DNA from: Methylococcales bacterium
Lineage (GTDB): Bacteria; Pseudomonadota; Gammaproteobacteria; JABHGC01
Reading direction: 5' to 3'
NCBI GenBank assembly: GCA_018672285.1
Contig: JABHGC010000183.1
Span: 133 to 64,132 of the forward strand
Length of the DNA: 64,000 nt
Shown: positions 11,742 to 16,502 of the stretch, one piece after another
Layout: every line of letters begins with the position of its first letter
Position numbering within the stretch: position 1 is the first letter of the stretch
Position numbers and translations under genes: made by a program
The notes under the pieces: generated by a model
The model's input: only the letters and a program-made list of their open reading frames with translations
Told to the model about the DNA's origin: nothing
Databases searched by the model: none

Positions 11742-13556
11742 GTGATCAAAAATCTCAGAAATATTGCCATTATCGCTCATGTCGACCACGGCAAAACAAC
11801 GCTTGTTGATGAGCTTCTTCAACAATCTGGCACATTAGGCGATCGCTCTGGTGAAGTAGAACGTGTCATGGATTCCAATGATTTGGAAAAAGAACGTGGC
11901 ATTACCATTACCTCTAAAAACACAGCCATCAAATGGAACGATTACCATATTAATATTGTAGATACCCCGGGCCATGCCGATTTTGGTGGTGAGGTTGAGC
12001 GTATTTTATCTATGGTTGATTGCGTTTTATTATTGGTTGATGCCGTTGATGGCCCCATGCCTCAAACACGTTTTGTGACTCAAAAAGCATTCGAAAAAGG
12101 CCTTTCGCCAATCGTTGTTATCAATAAGGTTGACCGCCCTGGTGCAAGACTTGATTGGGTACTTGATCAAACATTTGATTTATTTGACTCTCTTGGTGCC
12201 ACAGACGATCAATTAGATTTCCCTGTCATTTACGCTTCAGCAATCAATGGCTATGCCAGTTCTGAGGATTCTGTCACTGAAGGCGACATGACCCCACTAT
12301 TTAAAACCATTGTGGAAAGAGTATCTCCACCAGATGTTGATGAAGACGCCCCATTCCAAATGCAAGTCAGTGCCATTGACTTCTCCTCTTATGTTGGTGC
12401 CATCGGTATTGGCCGTATTAAACAAGGCCGAGTCTTTAAAAATTCCCAGGTCATGATTATTGATATTGATGGTGAGATTCGTAAAGGCCGCGTTCAACAA
12501 ATCTTTGGCTTCTTAGGTTTAGATAAAGTAGAGGTTGAAGAAGCCCAAGCGGGTGACATTATTTCTTTCACAGGCATCGATGGCATTGGTATATCCGATA
12601 CCTTGTGTGACCCAGAGCACGTTGTTGCCATGGAGCCATTAACGGTAGATGAACCAACGGTTACCATGACCTTCCAAGTCAACAAGTCACCCTTTGCAGG
12701 CCAAGAAGGCAAATATTTAACCACTCGCCAAATTAGCGATCGGTTAGACCAAGAGCTGATTCACAATGTGGCATTAAGAGTAGAACCAACACCAGATCCT
12801 GATAAGTTTAAAGTGTCTGGCCGTGGTGAATTACATTTATCAATCCTTATTGAGACCATGCGCCGTGAAGGTTACGAGCTTGCTGTATCTCGCCCAGAAG
12901 TTATTTTCAAAGAAATTGACGGTGTTCGTAGTGAGCCTTATGAGTCTGTGACCATTGATGTTGAGGAGCAGTTTCAAGGTAAGATCATGGAGGCTATTGG
13001 TGAGCGTAAGGGCAACTTACAAGACATGGTTCCTGATGGAAAAGGCCGAGTCCGTTTAGACTACATGATCCCTTCTCGTGGCTTAATTGGTTTTCACACC
13101 GACTTTATGAGCATGACATCAGGCACGGGTTTAATGCATCACGTCTTTGATCATTATGGTGTTGCACATCAAGGCAGCTTAGCGGAACGTAAAAATGGCG
13201 TACTGATTTCAAATGGTGTTGGCAAATGCTTAAGCTTCTCTTTATTTAACCTTCAAAGCCGTGGCAAATTATTTTTAGGCCCTGGTACACAAGCGTATGA
13301 AGGAATGATTGTTGGTTTGCATTCACGGGACAATGACTTAGTTGTTAACCCATTAAAAGGGAAACAATTAACGAACGTTCGAGCATCTGGTACTGATGAA
13401 ATGATCCAACTGACACCCCCCATTATTTTTTCACTTGAGCAAGCGCTTGAGTTTATTAATGATGATGAGTTAGTTGAAGTAACGCCTGAAAGCATCCGGT
13501 TACGTAAAACGTTCTTAAAAGAGCACGAGAGAAAGAAAATTGCTCGTGGCGGCTAG
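11742..13556 (+). CDS. typA: Translational GTPase TypA/BipA
   Basis: [56 protein letters not shown]. Confidence 0.99.
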
Positions 13557-13572
13557 ACTGTATTAGCCTAAT

Positions 13573-13615
13573 AAAAAATACCTTGAGTGATGAAAATCCT
13601 TGAGGTATTTTTTTT
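13573..13615 (+). terminator. Intrinsic terminator of typA
   Basis: AAAAAATACCTTGAG...CTTGAGGTA stem followed by a T run. Confidence 0.8.
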
Positions 13616-13637
13616 GTCTAGAGATTAAATTTTAGAC

Positions 13638-13775
13638 AAAAAAAAGCCCCGATCCTGGGTAAAGGTCGGAGCTACCACCGCTACTGGGTAAAAGTGCCTA
13701 GATCATCCATGCTTGTCGAAATCCTACCGACATTAATCCATCCGTGAATTGATACATCCCTATAACCAAGGCACA
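13638..13775 (-). ncRNA. Csr/Rsm-type (RsmY/RsmZ/CsrB-like) small RNA
   Basis: No ORF; six GGA motifs, several in short hairpin loops; own intrinsic terminator; GATAAT -10 upstream; GacA/LetA-like box about 60 bp upstream. Confidence 0.7.
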
Positions 13776-13829
13776 GGGGATTATCCCATAGCTTCAGGGA
13801 AATTACTGTCAGCTACATACGTAATATCA

Positions 13830-13847
13830 CGTAAGAAAATGCTTATT
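13830..13847. promoter_or_regulatory. GacA/UvrY/LetA-type binding box
   Basis: cGTAAG-AAAATG-CTTAtt resembles TGTAAG-N6-CTTACA. Confidence 0.6.
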
Positions 13848-13928
13848 TAAATGCCACCCTATGAAAGCGTCTTTCCACAGCCTATAATTTTCATATCTCA
13901 GTGAATTTTTTGGCATTTAGGCAGAGTT

Positions 13929-16502
13929 TTGAAAAAAATACTCGTAATAGAAACATCAGCAACATTGCGACACGGGCTCATTAAATCCTTGTCCGATATT
14001 CCGTATGAATTTTTAATCAATAAAAGTTATGAAGACGGATTAAAATCGCTAGAACGGTACCTCGATGCCAATCCCGATGAGCTAGTCGCCGTTATTGTTG
14101 GCTGGCCTGGGCAAACCTCGGATGCCGCAGATGAAGTCATTGCGCTTTTAGGTGAAGACGAATCACTTCGTAAGTTAGCCACACTCGTTATGGCCGTAGA
14201 AGTAGATCGAATCAAGCTTGACTGGGTGGTGCAAAGACATAACTCCGCTTTACTGCTTTGGGAAGACTATATTGATGTCTCAGTATCACTGTCTAAAATG
14301 TTGGAATCAACTGAGCCTAAAGAATCCGCGCCAGCAGTCGTCGAAAAAAAGGTCGAACTGACCGCTAAAGAAGACACTATCCGAGTGTTACTGGTCGATG
14401 ACTCCCCCACTGTTCGAGTGTTTTACAAACGTTTATTCATTAGTAATGGTTACGTCACTGAGGCGGCTTCCGGCTATAAAGAAGCACTTAAAATGGCTAA
14501 AAACAACCATTATGACGTGGCCGTTATTGATTACTTCATGCCCGATATGAATGGTGATGAGCTGGTTAAGCTTTTCAAATCTGAACCGGCTACAAGCCAT
14601 ATCTGGGCTGCCATCTTTACTGGCACATACTTAGATCAAGTCATTAAGGACTCGCTCGATGCGGGTGCTGTGGAATGTATGTTTAAAAACGAAGCCGACG
14701 AATTAGTCGTCGCTCGTTTAGATGCGGTTAGCCGAACCATTCGGGCAAACCGAAATGTCGAAAAAGAACGTAGACGACTTCAAGGCATCTTAAGTTCAGT
14801 GGGTGACGGTGTTTACGGTGTCAATACAGAAGGTTTAATCACCTTTATAAACCCTGCTGCATGTCGAATTTTAGGGCGCAAAGAACAAGATGAATTTATC
14901 GGTAAAACACCACATTCTCTTTTTCATTATGCCCTCAGTGATGGCACACCAAGCAACGAGGAAAGTTGCTATCTACAGCAAGCCTATGGCAAAGGGAAAT
15001 TGTTGCATGCTTGGGAAACCATTTTTTGGAGCGATAACTCCAAGCCGTTGCCAGTAGAATGCACTGTTTATCCGCTACAAATCGACAATCAGCTACAAGG
15101 CTCTGTGGTTGCCTTCAGAGATATATCAGAGCGGAAACTGCTAGAAGAAGAGCTGAAGTGGCAAGTCAACCACGACCACTTAACCAAATTATTAAATCGT
15201 CACTACTTTGATGACGAGCTAAAAAAAGAAGTCCGCCGATTAAAACGCTCAGAAGAAAAAAGCGCCCTGCTCTACATTGATTTAGATCGGTTTAAGTACC
15301 TCAATGATACCGCAGGCCATAGCGCAGGTGATCAGCTACTGGTAGAAGTTGGCCAGCAACTGTCTGCTCGCCTTCGTGCATCAGATATGTTGGCACGCCT
15401 AGGTGGCGATGAATTTGCGGTTATTTTGCGTAATATAAACATTGATATGGTCACAACACTTGCCGATCAATATCGTGAAGTGTTGCACTATTGTACCTTC
15501 CACTTTGAAGGGCAACAGTACAAAATTGACGGCTCTGTTGGTGTTGCCATCATTGATAAAACATCAAAATCACCTGATGAAGTTTTGGCACATGCCGATA
15601 TTGCTTGCCACATGGCAAAACAACAAGGCCGTAACCAGACCCATGTCTATGACATTGTAGAAGATGAAAAAATGTCCATGGACTTGGATTTAGGATGGTC
15701 GGCAAGGCTTCGAGAAGCCCTGTTAAACAATTTATTTGAGCTGCATTACCAGCCCATTTCAAAAATTGCAGACTTAGACTTAAATGAGTTACCGAAAGAA
15801 GGACCCCTATTAGATCCAGAAGTTGAGAGTCCTAGCCTTGTCCCTAGTCATTACGAAGTCCTGATCAGATTACGAATGGATCCTGAGGGACCTTTGATTT
15901 TTCCCAATACTTTTTTGCCAACAGCAGAACGCTTCAATTTAATGCAAGAGATTGATCGCTGGGTAATTGAGCGTGCCATTCAACAACTGGCCTTATCCAA
16001 TAGCACCGGCCAAAAAGCAAACTTTGCCATCAATTTGTCAGGGCACAGCTTAGGGGATGATTCTGTATTACCTTTTGTCATGGAGCTGATCAAAGAATAT
16101 AACGCCAACCCCAAAAACATCATCTTTGAAATCACTGAAACGACCGCTATTTCTAATATGGAATCTGCCCAAAAACTCATTAACGAACTGAGTGCCATCG
16201 GTATTCGCTTCTCTCTAGACGATTTTGGTTGTGGTTTTAGTTCTTTTGCCCACCTAAAACAACTCCAAGCAGACTACATTAAAATTGACGGGATGTTTGT
16301 ACAAGGGATGTTATCTGACCCCATTGACCAAGCAATGGTAAGGTCAATGAATGACATCGCCCACTCTTTGGGCAAGAAAACGATTGCAGAATTTGTAGAA
16401 AATATTGATATTTTGAAAAAACTCGATGAATTTGGTGTGGACTATATCCAAGGGTATTATCTTGGTAAACCCACGACCCATATCTATAAGCACGACGAGT
16501 AA
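13929..16502 (+). CDS. REC(degenerate)-REC-PAS-GGDEF-EAL c-di-GMP enzyme
   Basis: LLVDDS/VIDYFMPD receiver, GVYGVNTEG PAS, RASDMLARLGGDEF, YEVLIR, LDDFGCGFSS, QGYY. Confidence 0.95.
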   Translation: MKKILVIETSATLRHGLIKSLSDIPYEFLINKSYEDGLKSLERYLDANPDELVAVIVGWPGQTSDAADEVIALLGEDESLRKLATLVMAVEVDRIKLDWVVQRHNSALLLWEDYIDVSVSLSKMLESTEPKESAPAVVEKKVELTAKEDTIRVLLVDDSPTVRVFYKRLFISNGYVTEAASGYKEALKMAKNNHYDVAVIDYFMPDMNGDELVKLFKSEPATSHIWAAIFTGTYLDQVIKDSLDAGAVECMFKNEADELVVARLDAVSRTIRANRNVEKERRRLQGILSSVGDGVYGVNTEGLITFINPAACRILGRKEQDEFIGKTPHSLFHYALSDGTPSNEESCYLQQAYGKGKLLHAWETIFWSDNSKPLPVECTVYPLQIDNQLQGSVVAFRDISERKLLEEELKWQVNHDHLTKLLNRHYFDDELKKEVRRLKRSEEKSALLYIDLDRFKYLNDTAGHSAGDQLLVEVGQQLSARLRASDMLARLGGDEFAVILRNINIDMVTTLADQYREVLHYCTFHFEGQQYKIDGSVGVAIIDKTSKSPDEVLAHADIACHMAKQQGRNQTHVYDIVEDEKMSMDLDLGWSARLREALLNNLFELHYQPISKIADLDLNELPKEGPLLDPEVESPSLVPSHYEVLIRLRMDPEGPLIFPNTFLPTAERFNLMQEIDRWVIERAIQQLALSNSTGQKANFAINLSGHSLGDDSVLPFVMELIKEYNANPKNIIFEITETTAISNMESAQKLINELSAIGIRFSLDDFGCGFSSFAHLKQLQADYIKIDGMFVQGMLSDPIDQAMVRSMNDIAHSLGKKTIAEFVENIDILKKLDEFGVDYIQGYYLGKPTTHIYKHDE

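Follow-up and report, generated by a model that had tools for sequence, protein, structure and literature searches.

A candidate lineage-specific Csr/Rsm-type small RNA in the typA/GGDEF-EAL spacer of an uncultured gammaproteobacterium

A segment of about 138 nt on the minus strand, window positions 13775..13638, probably encodes a lineage-specific small RNA of the Csr/Rsm type, independently transcribed, RsmY/RsmZ-like and outside the curated families, that would titrate CsrA. We put the probability of this reading at about 0.55. The window is the whole stretch of DNA that was analyzed, 64,000 nucleotides long, and its source assembly comprises 4.17 Mb in 304 contigs with 43% G+C. The sequence features reported for the locus in an initial annotation were confirmed, and they lie on the minus strand at the coordinates given below. 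The same annotation had concluded that this is a lineage-specific Rsm sRNA, and this conclusion is favoured by the motif statistics, the quality of the sites, an orphan promoter and terminator, and a CsrA/UvrY(GacA)/BarA-like cascade encoded in the genome, but not by the fold, by the accessibility of the GGA motifs or by an upstream box matching at 9/12 positions. Transcription of the candidate RNA, its binding by CsrA and its control by the Gac system are what we infer from the sequence.

The candidate RNA (UGUGCCUUGGUUAUAGGGAUGUAUCAAUUCACGGAUGGAUUAAUGUCGGUAGGAUUUCGACAAGCAUGGAUGAUCUAGGCACUUUUACCCAGUAGCGGUGGUAGCUCCGACCUUUACCCAGGAUCGGGGCUUUUUUUU) is housed in the 372-nt spacer between typA and a GGDEF-EAL gene, an intergenic location of the kind sought by Kulkarni et al. 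(2006, PMC1488887). The features of the locus are as follows.

13638..13775, minus strand: body of the candidate sRNA, with 5' domain, linker and terminator and six A(N)GGAU motifs
11742..13556, plus strand: typA/bipA, flanking gene (NCBIfam TIGR01394, 932 bits)
13929..16502, plus strand: REC-PAS-GGDEF-EAL response regulator gene, flanking, divergent from the sRNA promoter
13579..13615, plus strand: typA terminator (hairpin and T-run), convergent with the sRNA terminator and outside the sRNA
13780..13788, minus strand: extended -10 TGgGATAAT (TG at 13788-13787), read by eye; predicted start at about 13772-13775
13638..13673, minus strand: intrinsic terminator, a 29-nt bulged hairpin (-15.2 kcal/mol) and U8, holding GGA site 6
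13830..13847, no strand assigned: GacA/UvrY-box-like AATAAGcattttCTTACG, 9/12 to TGTAAG-N6-CTTACA, 44 nt upstream of the -10
13818..13833, no strand assigned: imperfect palindrome TACGTgATATtACGTA, read from the sequence, overlapping the right half of the box

With typA and the GGDEF-EAL gene both encoded on the plus strand, the candidate locus is an orphan transcription unit, and the minus-strand terminator can only serve an independent minus-strand transcript. The promoter and terminator elements claimed initially are both present, namely the GATAAT -10 at 13785-13780, as part of an extended -10 that lies 5 nt ahead of the 5' stem of the RNA, and the GC-rich hairpin at 13673-13645 followed by T8 (13645-13638). 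This Rho-independent terminator is specific for the minus strand, as there is no T-run on the plus strand. The consensus promoter scan did not list the extended -10, which has no good -35, and the consensus terminator scan did not call the terminator because of its bulge and of the loop rule. Lack of a good -35 is expected of a promoter that has an extended -10 or depends on an activator.

The arrangement of these elements bears on two other explanations, both of very low probability. One is that the locus works at the DNA level or in cis on the plus strand, belonging to the regulatory region of the REC-PAS-GGDEF-EAL gene, from which it lies 150-290 nt upstream, or to its 5' leader, with the 9/12 box and the palindrome placed between two divergent promoters. 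However, the typA terminator precedes the locus on the plus strand, the sole promoter-like site for the GGDEF-EAL gene (ATGAAA-16-TATAAT, 13861-13888) lies downstream of it, the hairpin and U8 work on the minus strand only, and the GGAT/ATCC motifs, spaced by 16-19 nt, do not keep the helical phase that an array bound as DNA would need. The other is that the transcript serves, alone or besides another function, as a short mRNA for the 19-codon ORF MYQFTDGLMSVGFRQAWMI (window 13757..13698, minus strand). This ORF is indeed present between the promoter and the terminator, but its Shine-Dalgarno spacing is not usable, the GGG abutting the AUG; moreover, 19 open codons in 138 nt are unremarkable, the minus strand of the locus has no ORF of at least 30 aa, and the ORF is probably not translated.

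The box upstream of the promoter offers weak evidence for a GacA/UvrY site of the candidate, matches of at least 9/12 occurring at 3.6e-4 per position in the genome. The palindrome TACGTgATATtACGTA is a candidate alternative operator, although five-bp arms with a fixed spacer are statistically not unusual. Boxes of at least 10/12 were tried as pointers to sRNA genes and rejected, as they precede protein genes. The best boxes of the genome, matching at 11/12, number 20, of which 16 lie outside the long ORFs that cover about 90% of the genome; 15 of these 16 were examined, and they share no flanking sequence and are found close to the predicted starts of protein genes, not ahead of GGA-rich sequence. 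In each of the 15, a predicted protein gene starts 25-285 nt away on at least one strand. The palindrome TGTAAG-N6-C(C/T)TACA is itself strongly enriched in non-coding DNA (for instance at C6:78575-78614, C7:20456, C99:52184 and C222:3639, the letter C denoting contigs of this assembly), with one pair of boxes in tandem, and it looks like a transcription-factor regulon that does not mark GGA-rich loci. Nothing significant was found as a shared upstream motif among the three GGA-rich loci of the genome described below. Because the box at the candidate locus is weak and the best boxes lie elsewhere, Gac control of the locus is putative. A more specific version of the sponge reading, which we regard as decidedly improbable, is that of a genus-specific CsrA sponge, recently born inside the conserved typA/c-di-GMP-enzyme junction, which measures 30 nt in one relative and contains unrelated filler in two others. 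The sponge and the REC-PAS-GGDEF-EAL gene, transcribed away from each other, would have a bidirectional operator (GTAAG-N6-CTTA / TACGT-N6-ACGTA) in common, and a single signal would thereby control both CsrA titration and c-di-GMP turnover.

The count of six GGA motifs in about 138 nt of the minus strand proved correct, with motifs at RNA positions 17, 33, 37, 52, 68 and 121 (position 1 being window 13775). Each of them has the form A(N)GGA and continues with U (GGAU); at the genomic GGAT/GGA ratio of 0.355, the probability that all six sites are GGAU is 0.355^6 = 0.002. The genome is poor in GGA (0.0076 per nt), so that 1.04 would be expected per 138 nt where six are observed. Among all 138-nt segments of the genome, just 0.12% contain at least six GGA and just 1.6e-5 contain at least six GGAT. 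Six GGAT per 150 nt are found at four loci genome-wide, two of them coding, with the candidate locus as the maximum, and it is also the densest GGAU segment of the genome. The GGA enrichment at the locus thus exceeds chance.

We also re-implemented the CSRNA_FIND screen (Kulkarni et al. 2006, PMC1488887), measuring AGGA/ARGGA density on both strands of 1779 intergenic regions. With window sizes of 120 and 150, the candidate ranks second to third among 3558 intergenic strands, and the three loci that top the screen, the candidate included, stand above a remaining background that stops at 5 motifs. Its concentration of six motifs per 120-150 nt is high and equals the strict cut-off without exceeding it (Nm = Nc), this cut-off being satisfied by the top locus alone. 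The GGA density of the candidate, 4.3 per 100 nt, is below that of CsrB and CsrC (5.7-6.0).

These frequencies weigh on the reading, in our view quite unlikely, that no functional RNA is made and that the locus is a fast-evolving GGA-rich spacer whose hairpin and T-run merely shield typA against antisense transcripts coming from the divergent promoter region. The locus was picked after the fact from a whole-genome read, and its promoter was assigned by eye with no call from the consensus scan, both of which favour such a spacer; yet the Poisson expectation is well under one locus per genome with at least six GGAT per 138 nt, and far lower still in the non-coding 10% of the genome, and the two intergenic loci that reach this density both carry terminators.

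Site quality is also enriched beyond the GGA core, a further point against a mere spacer. We scored site quality against the CsrA SELEX consensus RUACARGGAUGU (PMC7652899), and the six sites obtained 10, 9, 6, 6, 8 and 6 of 12; scores of 10, 9 and 8 are reached by 0.5%, 2.7% and 11% of genomic GGAs, respectively. The sites and the stem that encloses the first five are located as follows.

13769..13774, minus strand: 5' arm GUGCCU of the closing stem, enclosing GGA sites 1-5, in the MFE and centroid structures
13757..13759, minus strand: GGA site 1, in UUAUAGGGAUGU, SELEX 10/12, P(unpaired) 0.64/0.88/0.41
13737..13743, minus strand: GGA sites 2 and 3, in AUUCACGGAUGGAUUA, SELEX 9/12 and 6/12
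13714..13732, minus strand: GGA site 4, in the 7-nt loop of the hairpin UGUCGG-UAGGAUU-UCGACA (-5.1 kcal/mol alone)
13706..13708, minus strand: GGA site 5, in AAGCAUGGAUGA, mostly single-stranded, SELEX 8/12, P(unpaired) 0.99/0.99/0.05
13694..13699, minus strand: 3' arm AGGCAC of the closing stem, in the MFE and centroid structures

The sixth site sits inside the terminator hairpin. Neighbouring sites among positions 17, 33/37, 52 and 68 of the RNA are about 15-19 nt apart, a spacing that fits the range of 10-63 nt over which one CsrA dimer can bridge two sites and lies near its optimum of about 18 nt (PMC7652899).

Folding predictions were less favourable to the sponge reading. The long-range stem of the initial annotation is recovered, GUGCCU (13774-13769) pairing with AGGCAC (13699-13694) in both the MFE and the centroid structures. 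The claim that several GGA motifs sit in hairpin loops fared only in part: complementary arms exist, but just one of the three hairpins is stable when folded alone. This is the hairpin of site 4, which competes with other pairings in the MFE, while UAUA-GGGA-UGUA (0.0) and AAUUCA-CGGA-UGGAUU (-0.9 kcal/mol) are both marginal on their own, and an architecture with the closing stem and all three hairpins is 10.8 kcal/mol worse than the MFE. The MFE itself, -42.3 kcal/mol, is no better than that of shuffled sequences (z = -1.59; 13 of 200 shuffles fold equally well), a point that also favours a functionless spacer. None of the six GGA sites is fully unpaired in it, 3/6 are mostly unpaired, and parts of all six are sequestered. 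Accessibility was calibrated with one script on CsrB and CsrC of E. coli and on a second locus of the same genome, linked to fdxA. The mean probability of being unpaired over GGA was 0.80 for CsrB (0.44 overall), 0.61 for CsrC (0.42 overall), 0.78 for the fdxA-linked locus (0.36 overall) and 0.52 for the candidate, against 0.39 for the whole candidate RNA. The predicted exposure of the GGA sites in the candidate is thus only modest. High-affinity SELEX hairpins mostly have stems of 4 bp or less, very stable stems being thought unfavourable for CsrA binding (PMC7652899), and this preference for short stems mitigates the modest exposure. Counting the GGAs that lie in loops of hairpins with 4-bp stems gave no discrimination, since a third of all GGAs qualify.

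A real, independent sRNA that is not a CsrA sponge, such as a base-pairing RNA of the Hfq/ProQ type or another RNA in which GGAU is incidental or serves another partner, is unlikely, and the modest accessibility, with parts of every site sequestered in the MFE, is one of the points in its favour. Others are the missing clear GacA box, a repeat in the 3' half of the RNA that has no role in the sponge model, and the orphan promoter and strand-specific terminator, which argue for a transcript whatever its function. On the other hand, such an RNA would hardly explain the highest GGAU density of the genome, the A(N)GGAU form of all sites and three strong SELEX-like matches, and the spacing of the sites is that of dual-site CsrA binding.

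The twice-repeated 9-mer described in the initial annotation, TTTACCCAG, is present at 13692-13684 and 13663-13655 on the minus strand. The two copies (UUUACCCAG) are 29 nt apart, one of them in the loop and stem of the terminator, and a repeat of some 9-mer would arise by chance in about 3% of stretches of 138 nt. The 9-mer could pair alternatively with GGUGGUAG (13671-13678), in competition with the terminator.

Partners for a CsrA sponge are encoded in the genome, where the check for csrA and gacA/uvrY suggested at the outset found both. CsrA, of 66 aa, scores 118.6 bits with the NCBIfam equivalog model (cut-off 73), is encoded downstream of alaS and an aspartokinase gene (alaS-lysC-csrA), and is nearly identical to E. 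coli CsrA across the RNA-binding region. For UvrY/SirA/GacA, the equivalog model gives 288.6 bits (cut-off 280) to a protein that shares 53% identity with E. coli UvrY and whose gene precedes uvrC and pgsA, as it does in E. coli. A BarA/LetS-like tripartite kinase is the clear best match for the sensor, at 666.6 bits, below the equivalog cut-off of 890. CsrA and a BarA/UvrY (GacS/GacA) pair are therefore both represented. The GGDEF-EAL protein encoded beside the candidate is not CsrD (123 bits vs a CsrD cut-off of 663).

Searches for homologues found no member of a known family. No Csr/Rsm match was obtained with Rfam at the gathering score over the whole window, nor at E<=10 over 13300-14100, where the matches were at chance level only; one of these, NsiR1 on the typA terminator, was discarded as arising from a hairpin and T-run. 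The expectation that Rfam would fail was thereby borne out (no match to CsrB, CsrC, RsmX, RsmY or PrrB_RsmZ). This places the candidate outside these families without excluding its function, for which the Rfam result is uninformative because the fdxA-linked locus was missed as well.

BLAST of the locus against 40 related genomes found nothing. The host family is isolated within the gammaproteobacteria: a set of 199,900 species representatives contains only two further genera of it, whose TypA proteins are 63-67% identical to that of the host. The typA/GGDEF-EAL junction is kept in the genomes G001 (374-nt spacer) and G002 (30 nt) and in the metagenome contig L106 (about 200 nt), whose neighbour protein is 67% identical to the GGDEF-EAL protein of the window. 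No alignable or GGA-rich element was found in these three syntenic spacers, and the want of conservation in every relative that keeps the synteny is the remaining point for a spacer devoid of functional RNA. Conversely, a spacer of 30 nt in one relative and of 372 nt here indicates that the spacer in the window holds extra content. Metagenome contigs of the same species were found (Ga0233435_1020612 and Ga0233436_1027322), the sRNA being 100% identical in a same-species contig, and a search of 5.8 billion proteins returned nothing between 67% and 100% identity to the protein of the neighbour gene. Outside the species itself, public data contain no relative closer than these. A search of G001 for a three-site GGAT pattern found no intergenic Rsm-like locus. 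An ACGGAU hairpin in the G001 spacer was rejected as an sRNA homologue; it is part of a long hairpin of ACACGGAU(G/A)GAC units (L091:3140-3200 (-); G001:C369:8037-8070) that recur elsewhere in that genome, and these units are a dispersed REP-like repeat.

Linkage of Rsm sRNAs to typA as a general theme was also rejected, as no enrichment was found over 80 typA loci. Two GGA-rich intergenic stretches with textbook hairpins were seen just downstream of typA in distant Gammaproteobacteria, namely in Aquisalimonas lutea (L036:5040-5200 (+)), where the hairpins are GGCCGCA-GGGA-UGCGGCC and CAGCACA-GGGA-UGUGCUG, and in a Sedimenticola MAG (L025:5020-5180 (+)). Neither cluster of GGA hairpins has an Rfam match, and both stretches, two anecdotal cases, may be unannotated Rsm-type sRNAs.

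Besides the candidate, the density screens pointed to two further loci of the same genome, on contigs C158 and C290, and no sequence similarity was found between the candidate and these other loci. The first, on the minus strand of contig C158 at about 13925-13745 (L147:1245-1425 (-)), has a dsbC-like gene on one side and fdxA, with which it is convergent, on the other. Of its seven GGA motifs (six GGAU), four or five are presented in the loops of stable hairpins such as GAACA-AGGA-UUGUUC and GGGGUA-AUGGA-UACCCU. It also has an 11-bp terminator with U8 and a fold z of -3.06, and it is a more canonical Rsm-type candidate than the locus in the window. Its 9/12 box lies 45 nt upstream of TATAAA, one of two candidate -10 elements; a second plausible promoter, TTGAAT-17-GATAAT, would break this coincidence of box distance with the candidate. 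Pseudomonas rsmZ likewise lies convergent with fdxA (table in PMC1488887). The locus shares with the candidate its GGAU bias and its profile of site quality, and we used it as an internal positive control. It is not detected by Rfam and is absent beside fdxA in both family relatives, so that missing conservation and negative Rfam results carry little weight for the candidate at such distances, including as arguments for a functionless spacer. The presence of a second, more canonical Rsm-like locus also indicates that the lineage uses such RNAs. Sponge sRNAs usually occur in sets of two or three.

The other locus, on the minus strand of contig C290 at about 1835-1690 (L148:1690-1835), packs nine GGA into about 140 nt, with several of them in the loops of short hairpins, and exceeds every other intergenic region of the genome in AGGA/ANGGA density. 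It continues without a break into the start codon of a 188-aa ORF whose N-terminus resembles a signal peptide (secreted or lipoprotein-like), and the locus is probably a 5' leader under heavy CsrA control or a sponge derived from such a leader. In addition, the first ~130 nt of contigs C173, C294, C287 and C167 are an identical repeat with four copies of TTATACGATG-like sites, terminating in ...GTGTTGGAAACAACA; this resembles one end of a Tn7-like transposon present in several copies, with the sites as an array for transposase binding, at which the assembly is broken.

If the candidate is a CsrA sponge, it would work as follows. Transcription would start from the extended -10 promoter, presumably activated by the UvrY/GacA orthologue through the upstream GTAAG-N6-CTTA element. 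The 5' domain, shut by the GUGCCU/AGGCAC stem, would display five A(N)GGAU sites spaced by ~15-19 nt, and would be followed by the Rho-independent terminator with the sixth GGA site. CsrA dimers would each occupy a pair of sites and so be drawn away from the ribosome-binding regions, with their GGA motifs, of the target mRNAs; to judge by the rest of the family, this titration should relieve CsrA control. Mechanism, partners and architecture are those expected for the sponge class and would not surprise a specialist. A real sponge at this locus would extend the Csr/Rsm class to an uncultured, deeply branching gammaproteobacterial family that has no catalogued member and in which Rfam models detect nothing, and would give the genome a likely set of two sponges, the candidate and the fdxA-linked RNA, that would help in reading its post-transcriptional regulation. 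It would also mean that a simple screen for motif density can still succeed when covariance models do not, and that within one family such sponges are wholly replaced from genus to genus.

The sRNAs found with CSRNA_FIND were judged by intergenic location, AGGA/ARGGA density, a terminator, GGA motifs that the predicted structure leaves in loops or otherwise free, and a conserved activating site upstream (PMC1488887). Judged in the same way, the candidate clearly shows the first three, but its structure (0.52 for GGA unpaired) and its upstream site (9/12) are not clear. Compared with CsrB and CsrC of the Enterobacteriaceae (RF00018, RF00084), it is much shorter, with 6 sites vs 22 in CsrB and 14 in CsrC, it has a lower GGA density and predicted accessibility, and it does not adjoin a CsrD-type turnover factor, the GGDEF-EAL neighbour falling far from that family by the scores given above; the partners BarA, UvrY and CsrA and a multi-site titration of CsrA would be common to both. 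Its closest likeness is to RsmY, RsmZ and RsmX of Pseudomonas (RF00195, RF00166, RF02144). Unlike these, the candidate matches no covariance model at any threshold tried, its GGA sites are less clearly exposed in loops, its upstream box matches at just 9/12, and it has different neighbours (typA and a c-di-GMP gene); in this genome it is the other locus that lies beside fdxA, as rsmZ does. Like them, it falls in the size class of ~110-140 nt, has a number of A(N)GGA motifs within their range of five to eight, and would be an orphan intergenic gene, one of its GGA motifs lying within the Rho-independent terminator. It further resembles them in a weak -35, in a palindromic activator site ~65-75 nt upstream of the start, putative in the candidate, in the CsrA/RsmA and GacS/GacA partners, known here from their genes, and in the presence of several non-homologous sponge genes, here candidates, in one genome.
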